The notes beneath the pieces were generated by a model. It worked only from the letters and a program-made list of their open reading frames with translations. It did not search any database and was not told the DNA's origin. A stretch of DNA of 64,000 nt, taken from positions 14,547 through 78,546 of the forward strand of contig DAPKRQ010000263.1 in the NCBI GenBank assembly GCA_031800475.1. The letters are read 5' to 3'. Shown piece after piece: positions 1,055-31,554 of the stretch; the stretch's first letter is position 1, and every line of letters begins with the position of its first letter. The translations under genes and the position numbers were made by a program. This DNA is from Myxococcales bacterium LLY-WYZ-16_1 (GTDB lineage Bacteria > Myxococcota > Kuafuiibacteriia > Kuafuiibacteriales > Kuafuiibacteriaceae).

Positions 1055-3460
1055 GTGGGCGCGTCCTTCGTCGTGCACGGGCATTTCTACCAGCCCCCGC
1101 GAGAGAACCCCTGGACCGAAGAAGTGGATCGCGAGCCCTCCGCGGCTCCCTTTCACGACTGGAACCAACGGATCTTCAAGGAATGCTACCGGGCCAATGC
1201 CTACGCCCGGATCGTGGACGACCGGGGCCGGGTGGTCCGCATCGTCAACAACTACGTCCACATGAGCTTCAACTTCGGCCCCACCCTCCTGCAGTGGATG
1301 GAGCGGCACCACCCGATCACCTACGGGCGCATCCTCGAAGCGGACCGGATCAGCCTGGAGCGTCGGGGCTACGGAAACGCCTTGGCCCAGGCCTACAACC
1401 ACACGATCCTCCCCCTCGACGCGCCTCGGGACCGCCGCACCCAAATCCGATGGGGCCTTTCCGACTTCCGAAAGCGCTTCCACCGGCCGGCCGACGGCAT
1501 GTGGCTGCCCGAAGCCGCCATCAACGCCGAGGTCGTCGACACCTTGATCGAGGAGGGAGTCGGCTTCGTGGTCCTGAGTCCCCACCAGGCCACCGGATTT
1601 CGAAAGCTGGGGGACCCCACGTGGACCCAGGTGGAGCGAGGCGCCATCGACCCGACCCGGCCGTACCTGATCCGGCACCGCATCCACCCCGAGCGCACCT
1701 TGTCGGTGCTGTTCTACGATGGTCCCAAGAGCCGGGCCGTGGCATTCGAGCGATCGATTTCCACCAGCCAGCGCCTGGTCGACAGCCTGATGGACCATGC
1801 GCCGAGCCAAGGCTTGGTCGCCCTGGCCACCGACGGAGAAAGCTACGGGCACCACACGGTCTTCGGAGACCGGACCCTGGCTCACGCCTTCGAAATGGAA
1901 GGCCCCCGGCGTTCGCTCGAATTCACCAACTTCGCGGCATGGCTCGCAGAAAACGAGCCGGCCCACGAGGTCTGCTTGTGGAGCGGCGACAACGGTCGGG
2001 GCAGTTCCTGGTCGTGTGCCCATGGGGTCGGGCGCTGGATCCGAGATTGCGGATGCCAGACCGGGGGGGCTCCGGAGTGGAATCAACGCTGGCGCACCCC
2101 ACTGCGGGCGGGCCTGGACGCCCTGCGCGAAAAGGCCAGCCAGGTCTTCGAAGATCGGGGCTCGGATCTCTTCGAGGACCCTTGGGAAGCCCGGGACGCC
2201 TACGTGGAGGTCCTGGGCGCGAGCCCGGTGGCGTTCGAACAGTGGTCTCGAGATCGGCAAAAACGGCCATGGACCGACGAAGACGCGGTCACGGCCCGGA
2301 CCCTGCTCGAAATGCAGCGGCACGCCTTGCTGATGTACACCTCTTGCGCCTGGTTCTTTCACGACATCTCGGGCATCGAAACGATCCAGATTCTGAAGTA
2401 TGCGGGACGCTGCATCGACGATCTCGCAGCGCTGGGTGCTCCTTCGTTCGAGCCGATTCTCTTGGAGCACTTGGCCGAAGCTGAAAGCAACCTTCCAGAG
2501 AAGGGAACGGGAGCCGACATCTACCGAAACCACGTTCCCCGATCGCGGGTGACCGCGGAACGGGTGGTGGGGCACCTGGCAATTTCGAGCGTCATGGACG
2601 GTATGCCTTCTGGTGGCTCGTTGGGAGCTTTCGCTTACGAGACCACAGATTTTCAAAAGACCTCGGTCCCGCCGCTGACCCTGTGCACCGCTCGGGTGAA
2701 GCTTCGTTCGGAATCGACGGGTCGGCCGAGTCACTTCGGCTTCGCCGCCCTGCACTTCGGCGGTATCGACTTCTATGCCGTGGTCCGCCCGAATCCCCAC
2801 GTGGAGGCCTTTTCGGCCCGGTCCCGAAAGCTTCACGACCTGATGGACGAAGCGTCGCTTCCCGTATTGCTGCGGGAGACCTTCGAATCCCTCGGTCCGC
2901 GAGAGTATCGGCTCGAGGACCTGCTTCCCGGGGGCGCCGAAAAGCTCGCCAAAGAAGTCTTCGGGTCGCTGCTGGACCGGTTCTTCGAAGCCTATGCACA
3001 GCTGTACCGGGACCACGGTCGCACCATGGAGATGCTGCAAGCCGCCGGCTTCGAGCTGCCCCGCGAGCTTCGGGCGGCGGCAGAGTTCACGCTGCAGCAC
3101 CGCTTCGAGGAGGAGATCCGACGCCAGGAAGAGAGCCGGGACCCCCGGGCCTATCGCCGGGCCATTCAGATCGCCCAAGAGGTCTCGGATCGGGGCTATC
3201 AGATCGATCGCACCAGCTCGAGCAGGGTGTTCGAAGCCATGCTGCATCGGTCGGTGCAGCAGGCCCTGCGCATGGCCGACGCTGCGTCGGTTCAGACCGT
3301 CCAGGAGATCGTCGAACTCATCCAACGACTGGATCTGCAGGTGTCCATCGAGCAGTCTCAGGAAGCAGTGGTGGAGGCGGTCCGCCGCCGGCGGGTACCG
3401 CCCGAGATCCGCGGTCCCCTGGGCGAAGCGCTGTTTATCTCACCGGAAGCGTTCTCCTGA
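1055..3460 (+). CDS. Glycoside hydrolase family 57 protein (GH57 catalytic region plus long C-terminal extension of the DUF3536 type)
   Basis: The N-terminus carries HGHFYQPPRENPW, the hallmark GH57 motif. Length is 801 aa, typical for this GH57 subfamily. Coding-like GC3. Confidence 0.85.
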   Translation: MGASFVVHGHFYQPPRENPWTEEVDREPSAAPFHDWNQRIFKECYRANAYARIVDDRGRVVRIVNNYVHMSFNFGPTLLQWMERHHPITYGRILEADRISLERRGYGNALAQAYNHTILPLDAPRDRRTQIRWGLSDFRKRFHRPADGMWLPEAAINAEVVDTLIEEGVGFVVLSPHQATGFRKLGDPTWTQVERGAIDPTRPYLIRHRIHPERTLSVLFYDGPKSRAVAFERSISTSQRLVDSLMDHAPSQGLVALATDGESYGHHTVFGDRTLAHAFEMEGPRRSLEFTNFAAWLAENEPAHEVCLWSGDNGRGSSWSCAHGVGRWIRDCGCQTGGAPEWNQRWRTPLRAGLDALREKASQVFEDRGSDLFEDPWEARDAYVEVLGASPVAFEQWSRDRQKRPWTDEDAVTARTLLEMQRHALLMYTSCAWFFHDISGIETIQILKYAGRCIDDLAALGAPSFEPILLEHLAEAESNLPEKGTGADIYRNHVPRSRVTAERVVGHLAISSVMDGMPSGGSLGAFAYETTDFQKTSVPPLTLCTARVKLRSESTGRPSHFGFAALHFGGIDFYAVVRPNPHVEAFSARSRKLHDLMDEASLPVLLRETFESLGPREYRLEDLLPGGAEKLAKEVFGSLLDRFFEAYAQLYRDHGRTMEMLQAAGFELPRELRAAAEFTLQHRFEEEIRRQEESRDPRAYRRAIQIAQEVSDRGYQIDRTSSSRVFEAMLHRSVQQALRMADAASVQTVQEIVELIQRLDLQVSIEQSQEAVVEAVRRRRVPPEIRGPLGEALFISPEAFS

Positions 3461-23826: not shown

Positions 23827-23886
23827 TGCTTCCGGTTTTTTCGGGCATCGCATACTCGGGCCCGATGCGGTAGCCCGGTCGCAACC

Positions 23887-25464
23887 ATGGCCAAGGTCTA
23901 CCAGCGCCTGCTCGATGGCGTGGAGCGCGCCGGAAACCTGCTTCCCCATCCGTTCTGGCTGTTTCTGATCCTGATCGGTGCGGTGGCGATCGTGTCGGAG
24001 CTCGCGGTTCAACTCGACTGGCAGCTTTCCCTTCCCGACGGCTCGGGAACGGCTGAAGCCCGCTCGCTGCTGCGACCGGAAGCGCTGGCGTGGTTCGTGC
24101 TTCACATGGTCGAAAACTTTGGCCACTTCGAGCCCCTGGGCCTGGTGTTGGTCATGCTGATGGGGGTGTCGATCGCCGAGGGTTCGGGGCTCATCACCAC
24201 GGTCATGCGGCGCATCGCCCTGACGGTTCCAGCTCGGGCAGTTACGCCGGTGCTCTTCGCCTTGGCCGCATGCGGAAACATCGGGTCGGACGCGGGGGTG
24301 GTGGTCGTGCCCCCTTTGGCCGCAGCCGTGTTTCGACAACTCGGACGGAACCCGATCGTGGGCCTGATGGTGGGCTATGTGGGAGCCACGGCCGGATTCA
24401 CCGCCAACCTGATCCCGGCAGGCACCGACGTGCTGGCCGTGGCCTTGACCAATGCCGCCACCAACGGGAACCCGGAGATCAACGTCCTCGCCAACTGGTA
24501 CTTCATGGTGGTTTCGGTCCTGTTCCTGGCGACCTTGGGCACCTGGGTGACCAAGACCGTCGTCGAGCCCCGCGTGCGTCGAACCACGGCCCCCCGGCCC
24601 GACGGACCGGACGGGAGCCGGCAAGGCAGTGCGGCAGGCGGGGACAGCGACTCGTCAGCTGCCCCATCGAAAGAGCCTCGCACACCCGATCCCCGCCGCG
24701 AAAGCCGGGCCCTGGCCTGGGCCCTCGGGGCCGTGGCGGTGGGTGCCGCCGTGTGGTTGTCGATGGTCCTCGTGCCGAACGGAGCGCTGCGGTCTACCGA
24801 CCCGGAGCAGTTCTGGCGCTCCCCGTTCTTCAAGGGCTTGGTGCCGATCCTGTTTTCGCTGTTTGCCCTGGGGGGCGTGGTATTCGGCCGGGTCAGCGGC
24901 ACGGTCCGGCGACCGGACGACGTCCTCGACTTCATGACCGAAGCGATGCGGAGCATGGGGGGCTATATCGTCCTCGTTCTCGCGATCAGTCAGTTCACGG
25001 AGTGCTTTCAGTATACCGGACTCGACCAACTGATCGCCGTCGGAGGTGCCGACCTGCTCCGCTCGTTGGGTATCCAAGACGTTCCGATCCCGTTTTTCGT
25101 CGCGTTCATCGTCGCGGTCGCCGTGGCCAACTTGTTCATGGGCAGCGCCTCGGCCAAGTGGGCGATCTTCGCACCGATCTTCGTGCCCATGTTCCTGCAG
25201 CTCGACTACCACCCAGCCTTCACCCAGCTGCTTTACCGGGTAGGCGACTCGATCACGAACTGCGTGAGTCCGCTCTATCCCTACTTCCCTCTGCTGCTCG
25301 GTTGGGTAGGCCGCGAATCTCCCGAACAGGCCCGGGTGGGCTCGGTGCTGGCGCTGCTCGTGCCCTACGCCTTCTTCCTGCTCCTGGGATGGACCGTCAT
25401 GCTCGTGCTCTGGTTCTTGCTGGGCCTGCCGGTCGGTCCGGACAGTCCGATCCGGATGCCCTGA
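23887..25464 (+). CDS. AbgT-family transporter (p-aminobenzoyl-glutamate/antimetabolite transporter family)
   Basis: N-terminus MAKVYQRLLDGVERAGNLLPHPF is typical of AbgT. 525 aa, polytopic and hydrophobic. Confidence 0.8.
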   Translation: MAKVYQRLLDGVERAGNLLPHPFWLFLILIGAVAIVSELAVQLDWQLSLPDGSGTAEARSLLRPEALAWFVLHMVENFGHFEPLGLVLVMLMGVSIAEGSGLITTVMRRIALTVPARAVTPVLFALAACGNIGSDAGVVVVPPLAAAVFRQLGRNPIVGLMVGYVGATAGFTANLIPAGTDVLAVALTNAATNGNPEINVLANWYFMVVSVLFLATLGTWVTKTVVEPRVRRTTAPRPDGPDGSRQGSAAGGDSDSSAAPSKEPRTPDPRRESRALAWALGAVAVGAAVWLSMVLVPNGALRSTDPEQFWRSPFFKGLVPILFSLFALGGVVFGRVSGTVRRPDDVLDFMTEAMRSMGGYIVLVLAISQFTECFQYTGLDQLIAVGGADLLRSLGIQDVPIPFFVAFIVAVAVANLFMGSASAKWAIFAPIFVPMFLQLDYHPAFTQLLYRVGDSITNCVSPLYPYFPLLLGWVGRESPEQARVGSVLALLVPYAFFLLLGWTVMLVLWFLLGLPVGPDSPIRMP

Positions 25465-25577
25465 CCGGTCGGAAGGGGGCGATTCAGGTCCCCGAACCGG
25501 GTGGAAGGGGGCGATTCGGGTCCCCGAACCGGGTGGAAGGGACGCGCGTGGAAGGGTCCGAAGCGCTCCGGGTCCCC
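25465..25577 (+). repeat. Tandem direct repeat, about 32-36 bp unit x2 plus a degenerate third copy (GGAAGGGGGCGATTCRGGTCCCCGAACCGGGT), immediately 3' of the abgT-family stop
   Basis: Seen directly. Each unit has an internal GGGGG...CCCC inverted segment. Lies in the 300-bp convergent intergenic region. Confidence 0.6.
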
Positions 25578-25769
25578 ATCTCGGTCGAGGCCACCGAGGT
25601 CCAAGGCACCTTTAGGCTGACCCCGCGGATTCCGCGGCTACCGAACTTCGAGCTGCGCTGGAGCGCCGACCTCCGGGGAAGGAGTCCAGAGGTCACGCCC
25701 GAGCGGCCCACCCGATACGCCTTGGAGGTGCGGGCGGGCGGCCAGCTGTTCGGGCGGGGCGAAGCGGGA

Positions 25770-27356
25770 TCAAAACAGCTGCTCCACACTCGCGCTCACG
25801 CCCCACTCGTTTTCGCCCGTCTGGGTCACGAAGCCGGTGAGCCCGTACAGGCTCACCTTGAACGCGTCCAACAACACCGTGTGGGCCCCGATGCCGAAGG
25901 CGTTCGCCGCCTGAAAAGAACGGGCAAAGGTCTGTCGATTCACACCCTCGAACAGGGCACCGTCGTGGAAAGCACTGACTTTGAAGTAGTCGCGAAGGAT
26001 CGCCAGTTGGTATTCTACGCGAAGAGATCCGATGTGCTCGGTGAAGAAGCGGTCGCCAAACAGGCCCCGCACGTGGTCGCTGATTCGCACCTCGTCCACG
26101 AAGGATACAGTTCCGGCCAAAGACTCGGCGTACAGCCGAATCACCAACTCGTCGAGCCCAAACCCGAACGTCTTGTCGTACCGAAAGACCCCCACCCACA
26201 GGGGCCGTTCCTGAAAGGAAGGAAAAACTCTTCCTTCCAAAAGAAATCGATGCCGCCGGTCGATCCGGAGCTGGTCTAGACCGAATGCGAGGCCCACTCC
26301 GAAGGACGCCATCAGCCGGGTCTCGTCGAGGGGATCTCTGCGAGGCAGCGGGTCCTCCTCCCGAAGACCGAGAAGCTGACGGTACTGAATACCTCCGCCA
26401 AAGGACAGTCGCAGCTGCTCGATGATCGGCCACGACACGCCGACCATGGGCTCGACCTGAAGAAAGTCGTAAGAACGGATCCCCAGGTCCAGCCGCTGGC
26501 GGCTGATCAATACGGCCCCCGGTGCCACGAATGGTCTCAGGCCCTCGATCGGGGGGCTCCACCATCGCATCCCGAACCCCCCTCGCGAAACGAATCGACG
26601 GCCCTCGGCGTCCGAGAACACGTCCTGGACCCGAAGTCCCAGCTCCGGGATCAACTCCAGTCGGTCGTCTTCGAGGAATGCCGACCGAAAGCGATACAGA
26701 ACCCGGGCCGTGAGACCGTCGGGACCCTGCAGGTCCGCGTCGAAGTCGAACCCGGGCGGCAGCCACTCTCTGGAGGCGAACACATAGAGCTCGTAGCGTC
26801 CTTGCACGGGAAGCTCCACGAACCGCTCGAGAAGCCGCTCGAGCTGAACGAGCCGCCCAGGGCCGAGGCCCCCTTCCTTGTCTTCACTGACTCGGATCTC
26901 GAAGTGATCGATCTCGACGCCGAACTGCCGTTCGAGCTGGGGAAACTGGGCTTCGAGTGCCTTTCTGTTGAAAATATCTTTCGGGAGTTCGAGCGCAAGC
27001 TTCATCCCCGCCGCTCTGAGCGCATCTTGACCCGGAAACACGATGCGATCGAGCTTGCCCTCGTCGACTCGAACCTGGATGCTCTTTCCGTCGGTCGACG
27101 TCCGTACCGAAGCCAGCTCGTAGCCCGACTCCCGCAAAAACTCCAAAATTCGGCGTCGCACGGTCCGGGCGGTCTCGGAATCTGCCGCGTCGAACCGATC
27201 CAGGTCGGCGACCGCTTCGTAGACATAGTCGCTCAAGACCTGGTTGCCCTCGATCACCAGATCGGCGGCGGCTTCGGCCGACCGCGGAACGGTGAGCCCG
27301 CCGCCGACGCAAGCCGCCAGGATGGCGGCGACGGCGCTGCGATCGGCACGAGCCAT
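25770..27356 (-). CDS. Omp85-superfamily outer-membrane protein (POTRA-like N-terminus plus C-terminal beta-barrel; BamA/TamA-like or two-partner-secretion transporter-like)
   Basis: Signal peptide (AAILAACVGG). Alternating amphipathic beta-strand pattern. C-terminal EQLF. About 520 aa. Last gene of a three-gene coupled operon. Confidence 0.6.
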   Translation of the reverse strand: MARADRSAVAAILAACVGGGLTVPRSAEAAADLVIEGNQVLSDYVYEAVADLDRFDAADSETARTVRRRILEFLRESGYELASVRTSTDGKSIQVRVDEGKLDRIVFPGQDALRAAGMKLALELPKDIFNRKALEAQFPQLERQFGVEIDHFEIRVSEDKEGGLGPGRLVQLERLLERFVELPVQGRYELYVFASREWLPPGFDFDADLQGPDGLTARVLYRFRSAFLEDDRLELIPELGLRVQDVFSDAEGRRFVSRGGFGMRWWSPPIEGLRPFVAPGAVLISRQRLDLGIRSYDFLQVEPMVGVSWPIIEQLRLSFGGGIQYRQLLGLREEDPLPRRDPLDETRLMASFGVGLAFGLDQLRIDRRHRFLLEGRVFPSFQERPLWVGVFRYDKTFGFGLDELVIRLYAESLAGTVSFVDEVRISDHVRGLFGDRFFTEHIGSLRVEYQLAILRDYFKVSAFHDGALFEGVNRQTFARSFQAANAFGIGAHTVLLDAFKVSLYGLTGFVTQTGENEWGVSASVEQLF

Positions 27357-27393
27357 CGGACCGGGTGGCGGTAGCAAAACCCAAGGCCGCTGG

Positions 27394-28899
27394 CTACGCC
27401 GAGTACGTCCGTGACGGCGGCTGCACGAAGGCGCGAAGGTCGGCACAGCGAAACCTCGGGGGTCTCGCCGCTTCTTCTGTGGCCATCCGTCGATGAAACC
27501 GCGCCGCAGCCCGGCGCACCTGCTCCGCCGCGTGTTCGCGAAAGGGCTCTCCCCGCATCAAAAACGGCCAGTCGCTGGCCTGCAGATCCAAAACGGCCTC
27601 CACCCGGGTCGAAGCCGCGGGATCGTCGGGATTCGCATGTTTGGCCCACCGCAGAAGCCGGCGGCTGCATGTTTCGACCAACCCCTGGACCCACGCATTT
27701 TCAGCGCCGATCCAGGTCTGAAAAAACCCGCCCCGTCCCCAGCTGCTCGGCTCCGGCACGCGCACCTCCACGGGCGCCCCGGAGCGAACGACACCAGCGG
27801 GCCCACGGACCGCGAACCCAGCGGCCAGTCCGGCCCGGACCACCCGGTCGAGCCATCGGGGTCCTTCGTACCACCAGTGCCCGAAGAGCTCGGCGTCGAA
27901 CGGCGCGCTCGAAACGGGGACGCGACCGGTGCGCGCTCGAAAGGCCTCGGCGTCGGCGGCAGCCCCTTCGACGAAGGACCGGACGTCCCGGTCCACCTGC
28001 CGGTGGGCGTCAGCGGCCACGTAGGGTCGTTTCGGTCCACCGGTGTGGTCGGTGACCCGCCAGACCTTCAGGCCCAAGGGCCTGCGGTCGGGGGGCAAAC
28101 CGCAGTCGACTCGGAGCCGTTCGCCCACCCCATCCGACCCGTCGGAGTGAAAGTCTCGGTAGGCGGGACGGGTGGGGAAACCGAAATCGGAACTCCACAC
28201 CCGAAGGGCCGCTTTCGGATCTCGCGGAAAAGCCACCGGCCCGCTCGGACACTGCATCGGCGCCCCCGTGCCGAAAACGGCCTCGGAGGCGGCGTGGGCC
28301 TCCACGAAAAAGACCGGCACCGCTTCCGCTGCCAGGATGGGTTCGAGCTCCGGCGACCATGCGCACTCTGGCAACCACAGGCCGGCGGGGCGGTGCCCCA
28401 TGCGCGCCCGGAACTCCGCGAGGCCGATGCGGATCTGGGCCGCCGCCAGGCGGAGATCCATCGAAGCGAGCAGCGGCAAAATCCCGTGGGAGGCGGCGGT
28501 GGTCTGAAGTTCGAGCACGCCCGCCTGGGAAAGGCGCCGGAAGACCTGGATCAGGTCACCGTCCCATCGCTCGAATCGACGGAGACGGGCTTTCCAGTCC
28601 TGGGCCAAATCGGTGTGCCCGAGGCGTTCGGCCAGCCGGACCGAGCCCTCTTGGCGTCGCACGAAGGCCCGCTGCACGGCGGGATCTTGCAGCATCGACA
28701 GCAAGGGCGGGGACACCGACCACGCCACGGAAGCGTCGAGGCCGTCCCGGGCCCACCCCTCGAACACGGTGAGGAGCGGTACATAAGCGTCGCGCACCGC
28801 TTCGAACACCCAATCCAGCGGCCACGGTGCCTCCACCTCCGGGTCCCGCACCTCCGGCAGGTGGGCATGCAACCCGAAGACCCAAACGCCTCGCACCAT
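27394..28899 (-). CDS. GH57-family alpha-glucan branching-enzyme-like protein (GH57 domain plus DUF1957-type C-terminus)
   Basis: The N-terminus (VFGLHAHLPEVRDPE ... DWVFEAVRDAYVPLL) matches the VLHTHIPYV...EEWLFEA...ETYIPLL pattern of GH57 branching enzymes. WLPECAW catalytic-region motif present. 501 aa. Confidence 0.8.
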   Translation of the reverse strand: MVRGVWVFGLHAHLPEVRDPEVEAPWPLDWVFEAVRDAYVPLLTVFEGWARDGLDASVAWSVSPPLLSMLQDPAVQRAFVRRQEGSVRLAERLGHTDLAQDWKARLRRFERWDGDLIQVFRRLSQAGVLELQTTAASHGILPLLASMDLRLAAAQIRIGLAEFRARMGHRPAGLWLPECAWSPELEPILAAEAVPVFFVEAHAASEAVFGTGAPMQCPSGPVAFPRDPKAALRVWSSDFGFPTRPAYRDFHSDGSDGVGERLRVDCGLPPDRRPLGLKVWRVTDHTGGPKRPYVAADAHRQVDRDVRSFVEGAAADAEAFRARTGRVPVSSAPFDAELFGHWWYEGPRWLDRVVRAGLAAGFAVRGPAGVVRSGAPVEVRVPEPSSWGRGGFFQTWIGAENAWVQGLVETCSRRLLRWAKHANPDDPAASTRVEAVLDLQASDWPFLMRGEPFREHAAEQVRRAAARFHRRMATEEAARPPRFRCADLRAFVQPPSRTYSA

Positions 28900-30785
28900 C
28901 AGCCGTCGTCGTGGGGGCCGAACTCGTGGGCGGGAATCAGAGCGCTCGAGGGACGCTCGGTTCGACCCGACCGGCGAGGATCCGGCGCGGGTCCGGGCCC
29001 CGGTCCTCGGTGGAGCGCCTGGGGCCCCTGCCGCACCGGCGCCGACCAGGCGTCGAGCCGGGCCCGGTGCGCCACCCCCGAACGGTCTTCCTCGGCAGCG
29101 TCCGGCGGCTCGAAAGCTCCGGGTCCCTCGACCGGCCCCCCGGCGAACTGGGATGGCCAGATCGGCCCGGGGACCCGGCCCGCCGCCCCCGCGTCAGGCC
29201 CCCTCGACAGGGGTTGCCTGTCGGGAAAGACGGGTGAGGGGCCGGCGGCCGGAACGGCTGCGCCCCCGGCGGGCTCGGACCCACCGCTCGTTTCGAGCGA
29301 ACCCGAGACCGGGGTCCGTTCGGCGGGCTCCGAGCCCGGCCTGGCCCTCACCCCCTGCTCGGCCGGGCCGGCCGCTGGGTGGACGAGCCCCGCCCTTCGC
29401 CCATCCAAACTCCGGAACGAAGTCGGTCGTTCCAGGGCGCGGCCCGGAAGGCCCCGCGCCGACGTCGGAAGCCCCGAAACCTCCCAGGCGCGACCCGGAA
29501 GGCCCCGCGCCGAGGTGGGCACGCGCCCCACGCTGCCGGGGCCCCAGGCCGACAGGTCGCCCTGCGGGAGAATCGGTCCGGGACCCGCCGAGGTGCCGGC
29601 GGCTCCGGGGGCCTCGAGTCTGGCCCCGACCGCGCCGGATGGCGTCCCGCCCAGGTGCTTGGACCCGTGGGCAGTAAAGGGCGCATCTGGCCGAGGACGC
29701 CGCAGATCTGGGGCCGGGCCGCGCCACCCCGAATCGGTCGAGCTGGCGCTGTCGGGAGCGTGGGCACCGCAGAGGGAGCTCGCCTCGAGCCAAGACGCCG
29801 CCTGGGTGGGGGGTTCGAAACGGGGCCCGTCCGCCTTCGATGGGTCCGCCGGACCGGGAGCCTCCACGATTCCAGACCGGGCCAACTCGCGCTCCCCTTC
29901 GTCCGCGACCACCACCAACTGAGCGTAGAAGCGCCCCGGACCGGGCCACCGGAAGAAGTACTGACCCTCCGACGGCGCCACCGCATCGTCGATGGCCGGC
30001 ATCGAATCGCACAGGGACCAGACCCGAAGCCGAGCGATGGCCCAGCGCATGCCGGCGGCAGCCGCCCCCACGGCGTGAAGCGGGATGTTCCAGGAAACGT
30101 AGGCCCAGGTCCGATCCCGCGGCAGCAAGAGCAGGCCGTCGGCCCCGGCCTGCGGTCCTTCGAGGGGCAGCAGGGGCTCGGAGTGGGGCGCCGCCGGTTC
30201 GGAGGGGTCCGGTGCAGATCGGGCAGGCTCGTCGGCCCTCGGCGCCAGGGTGGGGGACGGCGGAGCGGCGGTCGTCGATTGTGTTGCCCTGCCCGGCTTC
30301 GAAGAACCGCCGCGCTTCACGGCCTCGGCCTCGGGCGGTTCGGCGTCGGCTGCCGCCCCTGCGTGGGACGGAGCGGAGGAAGGCGCCGAACGGCGCCCCC
30401 CATCGGCCGGCGGGGCCGCCTCAGCCTCGGCGGCTTGTTCCTGCGCACCGGTCCCAGGCGCCGGATCGGCTGCGGGCTCGGTTTCCCGCATCGTTCTTTG
30501 GTTCGTCTGAATGGACGCAGCGAGCTGAGCAGCGCGTTTCAACAGATCGCTCGGCCGAGTCCGGATCGGCCGGCGACTGAGCTGGCTCACCAACTCGTCC
30601 ATGACGCGAATCCCCATGTCCCCGAGCCGAGACCGAGCCCGGCGAGCCCGGTCGACCGTAGCCGAAAGATTCTTGCCCAGGGCCCGAAGGGTCCGCAGCG
30701 CCTGGTCTTCCTGGGGTGCGGTCACGCCGCGGACGTAACAGGCCGCGATGAAATTCGGAACGCGATCCTCTCCGATCGACAGCAT
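28899..30785 (-). CDS. Pro/Ala/Gly-rich low-complexity protein with one conserved central block (LLLLPRDRTWAYVSWNIP); possibly the DUF4912-type partner often found beside GH57 genes
   Basis: The stop overlaps the GH57 start (TGATG). Internal nucleotide repeats encode TSARGLPGRA x2. The start is uncertain (ATG at 30785, or the longer ORF to 30965). The domain assignment is from memory only. Confidence 0.45.
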   Translation of the reverse strand: MLSIGEDRVPNFIAACYVRGVTAPQEDQALRTLRALGKNLSATVDRARRARSRLGDMGIRVMDELVSQLSRRPIRTRPSDLLKRAAQLAASIQTNQRTMRETEPAADPAPGTGAQEQAAEAEAAPPADGGRRSAPSSAPSHAGAAADAEPPEAEAVKRGGSSKPGRATQSTTAAPPSPTLAPRADEPARSAPDPSEPAAPHSEPLLPLEGPQAGADGLLLLPRDRTWAYVSWNIPLHAVGAAAAGMRWAIARLRVWSLCDSMPAIDDAVAPSEGQYFFRWPGPGRFYAQLVVVADEGERELARSGIVEAPGPADPSKADGPRFEPPTQAASWLEASSLCGAHAPDSASSTDSGWRGPAPDLRRPRPDAPFTAHGSKHLGGTPSGAVGARLEAPGAAGTSAGPGPILPQGDLSAWGPGSVGRVPTSARGLPGRAWEVSGLPTSARGLPGRALERPTSFRSLDGRRAGLVHPAAGPAEQGVRARPGSEPAERTPVSGSLETSGGSEPAGGAAVPAAGPSPVFPDRQPLSRGPDAGAAGRVPGPIWPSQFAGGPVEGPGAFEPPDAAEEDRSGVAHRARLDAWSAPVRQGPQALHRGPGPGPAPDPRRSGRTERPSSALIPAHEFGPHDDG

Positions 30786-30831
30786 GCTTCGCCGACCGAC
30801 CGCACCCTCTGAGGCGCTCGATGCGCGCTCG

Positions 30832-31554
30832 ATGTTGTGTCTCGCCCGGCGGTGGGAAAGGCTCGCGGAGATGGGCGCAAACCCTTTTTCGGTCGCGCTG
30901 ATCCTGTTGGGCCTGCTGGGGCTCTCGGTCGTCCTGCTGCTGCGCCGACCGGCGGGCCTGTTCACCAGCCGCCGGGCCCGTCTGCCCCGTCACCTGGATC
31001 TGGAACCGTTGGAAGGAAGTGTGCCGTTCGACGCCCGGACCCCGATGGAATATCTGTCGGAGCGCCTCGGCCACCTGGGCTTCGAATCTGCCGGTCCCCC
31101 GGTCCGGGTCCGGGCCTTCGACCGGACCGGCCATCGGCTCTTGGTCGTGCCTTTCGTCCATCGAGACGAGCGGGCGTACTTCCTGATGGGCATCGAATCA
31201 GGAGTATCCCCGAGATCCGAACTCATGTTGCACATCATCACGCCCCTGGAGGGCCAGCGCCGGGTGGAAACCACCACCTTGCCCATGTTGCAGGAAATGC
31301 GGTCGCCCGAAGCCGTCGAAGCCCGGGTGGTTCTTGACGCAGACTCGGTGGAGGAGATCTGGAGTCGCCACCGGCGGGCCCTGGTGGAGCACGAACGCCG
31401 AGAGCGGGCAGCCGTCGGCGCCGCGCAGTGGCCGCAGGTGGCGGCAGAGGCGTACGAAGCGTGGCTGCAGGCCGCGGTCCGGGCCCAGCGGCTGATCCTG
31501 GAGCCGAGCCGCGATCGATATCGGGTGCGACCGCGCCCGAAGAGCGTCGTCTGA
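30832..31554 (+). CDS. Hypothetical membrane protein
   Basis: One strong TM helix (FSVALILLGLLGLSVVLLL). No recognised domain. Divergent from the GH57 operon and directly upstream of the ElbD-like gene. Confidence 0.4.
   Translation: MLCLARRWERLAEMGANPFSVALILLGLLGLSVVLLLRRPAGLFTSRRARLPRHLDLEPLEGSVPFDARTPMEYLSERLGHLGFESAGPPVRVRAFDRTGHRLLVVPFVHRDERAYFLMGIESGVSPRSELMLHIITPLEGQRRVETTTLPMLQEMRSPEAVEARVVLDADSVEEIWSRHRRALVEHERRERAAVGAAQWPQVAAEAYEAWLQAAVRAQRLILEPSRDRYRVRPRPKSVV

Follow-up and report, generated by a model that had tools for sequence, protein, structure and literature searches.

Why the gene for an outer-membrane protein of the Omp85 superfamily should sit in one apparent transcription unit with the gene for an alpha-glucan enzyme is the question raised by three adjacent minus-strand genes in the window, by which we mean the whole 64,000-nt stretch of Myxococcales bacterium LLY-WYZ-16_1 DNA analyzed here. 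A sequence-only reading had offered two answers, namely export or surface assembly of an alpha-glucan-related product and two-partner-type secretion of the Pro/Ala/Gly-rich protein encoded first. The reading that we favor, with a probability of roughly 0.6, is that an Omp85 paralogue has come, in this lineage only, to be transcribed together with a cytoplasmic DUF4912-GH57 glucan module, a coupling of expression with no common export pathway.

Our ORF check recovered the unit where it had been described, in the order A-B-C: gene A (28899-30785) encodes a 628-aa DUF4912-domain protein, gene B (27394-28899) a 501-aa GH57 protein, and gene C (25770-27356) a 528-aa Omp85-superfamily protein; features within these genes are given below in minus-strand coordinates. 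Gene A was translated from an ATG at 30785, and an alternative GTG at 30725 agrees with the starts of its homologues. The unit comprises exactly three genes, since beyond gene C lies an AbgT transporter gene that converges on it (23827-25464, plus strand) and beyond gene A a conserved membrane-protein gene that diverges from it (about 30871-31554, plus strand, its start set at MGANPF by alignment with relatives L001 and L006). The proposed operon-like linkage was borne out, in that the genes share a strand, the stop of A overlaps the start of B (TGATG, 28901-28897), and the stop of B closely precedes the start of C, the distance between them being 37 nt (27357-27393, minus strand) rather than the 38 bp first given. 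Consensus scans returned no sigma-70 promoter-like site and only a chance level of terminator-like sites in 25300-31300, and no sigma-70 consensus in the ~85-nt divergent intergenic region (30786-30870), which is presumed to hold the operon promoter in common with the membrane-protein gene; such scans are uninformative for this high-GC organism. No terminator-like hairpin was present in the 37-nt spacer. Co-transcription of A, B, and C, starting in the divergent intergenic region ahead of A, is very probable and would make the coupling one of co-expression rather than of a shared export pathway. Elsewhere in the window, the second GH57 gene reported at 1055-3460 was found, with DUF3536, and our search for further glycogen genes was likewise negative.

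All three family assignments hold, that of gene A as a probable divergent member of DUF4912. Composition and alignment with the L001 and L006 orthologues divide its protein into a clade-specific helical N-terminus, a linker rich in Ala and Pro, the DUF4912 core, and a disordered Gly/Pro/Ala/Ser/Arg-rich tail of ~310 aa, in which direct reading of the sequence revealed an internal repeat, two copies of PTSARGLPGRA (29436-29519). The core (residues 213-319; 29829-30149) scored 22.7 bits with Pfam PF16258, under the gathering cut-off of 29.4, and 29.8 bits (E 2e-11) with a custom HMM derived from 52 DUF4912 domains that metagenomes encode upstream of GH57 genes, the match covering model positions 13-131 of 136, which is nearly the full domain. 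A small HMM of eight DUF4912 sequences gave no match to A, nor did NCBIfam, and the orthologues in L001 and L006 do match PF16258. The central block also keeps the RDPxWxYxxW start and the LRV, WY, and RS..v..P motifs of the family. Taken together, the Pfam and HMM evidence suggests that A is a divergent DUF4912 member, in keeping with the similarity that had been suspected for its central block. It departs from other members in its score below the Pfam threshold and in its length, 628 aa compared with 260-330 aa in L078 and L079, the additions being the helical N-terminus and the disordered tail.

Gene B belongs to the AmyC or loop-less "branching-enzyme-like" (DUF1957) type of GH57, matching Pfam Glyco_hydro_57 with 79 bits and BE_C only weakly. 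It aligned end to end with Thermotoga maritima AmyC (PDB 2B5D; E 7.5e-68), although identity is only ~35-40%, and like AmyC it keeps the catalytic Glu, the catalytic Asp, and HAHLP while having no flexible loop, no beta5-6 strands, and no signal peptide. The predicted nucleophile, Glu178 in WLPEC (28366-28368), and acid/base, Asp335 in PFDAELFGHWW (27895-27897), both align with the AmyC motifs, and the N-terminus runs at once into the catalytic HAHLP motif. Judged by these residues, the enzyme is catalytically intact and predicted to act on alpha-1,4-glucan. We rejected its identification as a true GH57 glycogen branching enzyme: compared with the Pyrococcus horikoshii enzyme (5WU7), the 17-22 aa flexible loop and the beta5-beta6 strands are deleted, and the NCBIfam branching-enzyme equivalogs gave ~195 bits, far under their cut-offs of 920-1000, which also excludes it from the true branching enzymes in the sense of PMC9291813. 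According to PMC9291813, about 92% of GH57 "branching-enzyme-like" proteins lack the loop, and on their own these are inactive or nearly so in vitro; AmyC, the nearest solved relative of B, is reported to be intracellular (PMC6616209). What sets B apart from AmyC and the loop-deficient proteins described in these studies (PMC9291813, PMC6616209) is its pairing with a DUF4912 gene.

This pairing extends well beyond the locus, in agreement with the sequence-only reading, which called the association with a low-complexity protein recurrent. Of 80 metagenome loci, 59 had a DUF4912 gene on the GH57 strand 130-1300 nt upstream of GH57, and about 10 of the others were too short upstream to judge; L078 and L079, two unrelated genomes, showed the same arrangement. 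Six of the best 120 GH57 homologues were natural DUF4912-GH57-BE_C fusions, in which the domain order repeats the gene order; in the structure model of one of them (P0063), DUF4912 was an all-beta domain, ~95 aa long (pLDDT 82-96), joined by a disordered linker. No paper on the pairing was found in the searchable literature under DUF4912 or DUF1957. The N-termini of A and B, and of the phosphoesterase of related loci described below, consist of the domain itself or of charged sequence and lack signal peptides, and an alignment of the starts of A homologues showed none either; signal peptides of A, B, and C were judged by eye rather than with a predictor. On the strength of these sequences, A and B together are a widely conserved, putatively cytoplasmic module beyond this lineage. 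Because the two are fused in other bacteria, we infer that DUF4912 is a non-catalytic partner of GH57, perhaps in substrate binding, targeting, or regulation.

Gene C is of a different kind. By eye it starts with a signal peptide (residues 1-29, MARADRSAVAAILAACVGGGLTVPRSAEA, followed by AAD), after which Pfam recognizes POTRA1 (residues 32-100; 27063-27263; 23.5 bits, cut-off 21.3) and the AlphaFold2 model adds a POTRA2-like domain (26772-27056), both being beta-alpha-alpha-beta-beta units, and a 16-stranded barrel of Omp85 type (25773-26753). The VRGLFGD motif (residues 429-435; 26052-26072) corresponds to the (V/I)RG(Y/F) of Omp85 loop L6; its R430, G431, F433, and D435 are invariant among 15 homologues, and in the model the long loop that contains it follows strand 402-415 and leads into strand 441-454, ahead of the barrel's final five strands. 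The C-terminus, ...VEQLF, is an aromatic beta-signal with terminal Phe. Thus modeled, the fold is clearly that of Omp85, whereas neither Pfam (PF01103) nor NCBIfam had a barrel model that matched, NCBIfam gave no match to C at all, and profile A1, run against PDB sequences, returned weak POTRA matches alone, so that the barrel could not be linked to Omp85 by sequence comparison with solved structures. Pfam matched POTRA in 43 of 74 family members. The family is small: a search of 1.84 billion proteins gave 599 representatives, nearly all of them from Myxococcota. It constitutes a compact, sequence-isolated Omp85 subfamily that is essentially confined to that phylum and that the barrel models of Pfam and NCBIfam miss. 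The barrel resembles those of TamA and BamA, to which its fold scores were higher than to TpsB proteins, but C has two POTRA-like domains where TamA has three and BamA five, and no TamB/AsmA-like or Bam lipoprotein gene adjoins it. Clustering of neighbors at 74 loci revealed no recurrent gene partner around the wider family, the commonest neighbors (MFS transporter, Ser/Thr kinase, FemAB-like, and DUF3014 genes) each occurring at no more than 13.

How, then, did such a gene come to follow the glucan module? The GH57-Omp85 linkage was confined to one monophyletic Omp85 clade, with genomic context in seven genomes, and the neighborhood comparison that the sequence-only reading had called for thus showed synteny conserved in related genomes; with the DUF4912 similarity also present, neither of the two findings that would have told against that reading was made. 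Identity is 45-54% for the linked copies and 22-34% for the rest, and the sister of the linked copies in the tree is the unlinked paralogue from the L001 genome itself. Outside the clade the association disappeared: none of ~64 other members of the Myxococcota family was linked to GH57, and none of 80 GH57 loci elsewhere carried this Omp85 family. Among 68 genomic loci of the Omp85 family, L010 and L011 were alone in having GH57, DUF4912, or phosphoesterase genes nearby. The usual order in relatives is GH57, a metallophosphoesterase of ~290 aa, and Omp85, with 4-13 nt stop/start overlaps running through all three in L006, L008, L081, and L001 and a 17-nt gap ahead of Omp85 in L007; in L080, GH57 directly adjoins Omp85. 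The phosphoesterase gene is missing from the locus in the window and from its closest relative, and no homologue of it was found anywhere in the window. It matched no specific NCBIfam subfamily and, by sequence, no solved relative, and we dropped the idea that it forms an envelope-biogenesis pair with Omp85, as it is not LpxH-like.

Neither export proposal received support, because A, B, and the phosphoesterase have no signal peptides and A contains no TPS domain, and no sequence hint of glucan or partner-protein export by the barrel was found. That C could serve as a TpsB-like transporter secreting A is scarcely credible: Pfam detected no TPS (Haemagg_act) domain in A or the neighboring genes, DUF4912 is fused to a cytoplasmic GH57 in other bacteria, and candidate cargo genes are absent near most members of the Omp85 family. 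Unlike FhaC, CdiB, and ShlB, moreover, C has no TpsA/TPS-domain cargo gene beside it and, in its model, no N-terminal plug helix, the signal-peptide helix leading straight into the first POTRA1 strand (32-36), and its fold scores ranked TamA and BamA above these TpsB proteins. A mechanistic link, in which C would export or assemble a surface product made or remodeled by the GH57/DUF4912 pair, or insert an outer-membrane protein that such a product needs, is somewhat easier to defend, yet we consider it improbable. Room for it is left by the translationally coupled order, kept in seven lineages at 45-55% identity, by the GH57-Omp85 adjacency, which survived loss of the gene between them, and by two gaps in knowledge, namely how, in general, bacterial capsular alpha-glucan is exported (PMC11046441) and what loop-less GH57 enzymes do in vivo (PMC9291813); against it stand the lack of signal peptides noted above and the restriction of the linkage to one small clade.

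Adjacency might also have arisen without co-transcription, the Omp85 gene being functionally and transcriptionally independent, served by a promoter of its own within the 3' part of GH57, and the synteny reflecting only common descent. The wider region (AbgT, prfC, fumarase, and a FAR/acyltransferase megaprotein) is itself syntenic among these genomes, so that part of the conserved adjacency could be plain shared ancestry, and the 37-nt spacer without an obvious Shine-Dalgarno sequence, the unlinked paralogues, and the unrelated contexts of the wider family point the same way. We nevertheless regard this account as unlikely, in view of the start/stop overlaps in four relatives, the spacer free of a terminator-like hairpin, and the rearrangement of both flanks in relatives while the unit itself stayed intact.

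Lineage-specific co-expression would accommodate these observations as follows. A and B would work as a cytoplasmic pair, the GH57 enzyme acting on alpha-1,4-glucan with DUF4912 as its presumed non-catalytic partner, and C would be a Sec-exported Omp85 protein with two POTRA domains that may insert or translocate a protein substrate at the outer membrane. An Omp85 paralogue and a metallophosphoesterase gene would have been added, in one lineage, to the DUF4912-GH57 operon at its 3' end; a clean loss of the phosphoesterase from the genome of the window and from its closest relative would then have brought GH57 and Omp85 to within 37-65 nt of each other. The retention of the coupling at 45-55% identity and after that loss could reflect a real functional dependence beyond the reach of sequence analysis.

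The locus is no new kind of system, since all its components fall in known superfamilies. The pairing of GH57 with Omp85 is best regarded as lineage-specific operon accretion and not as a general alpha-glucan export system, a distinction that spares follow-up effort. Recruitment of an Omp85 paralogue in this Myxococcota clade to surface display of an alpha-glucan-related product, or of a protein dependent on it, is a long shot; if true, a diderm would for the first time offer genetic access to the surface display of alpha-glucan. More plausible, though tentative, is a proposal independent of Omp85, that DUF4912 may be the missing obligate partner of the loop-less GH57 "branching-enzyme-like" proteins, in which case only the two proteins together, or their fusion, would reveal the true activity and substrate. 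The association of DUF4912 with loop-less GH57, through both adjacency and fusion, is strong, and it bears on what the abundant "GBE-like" enzymes do.

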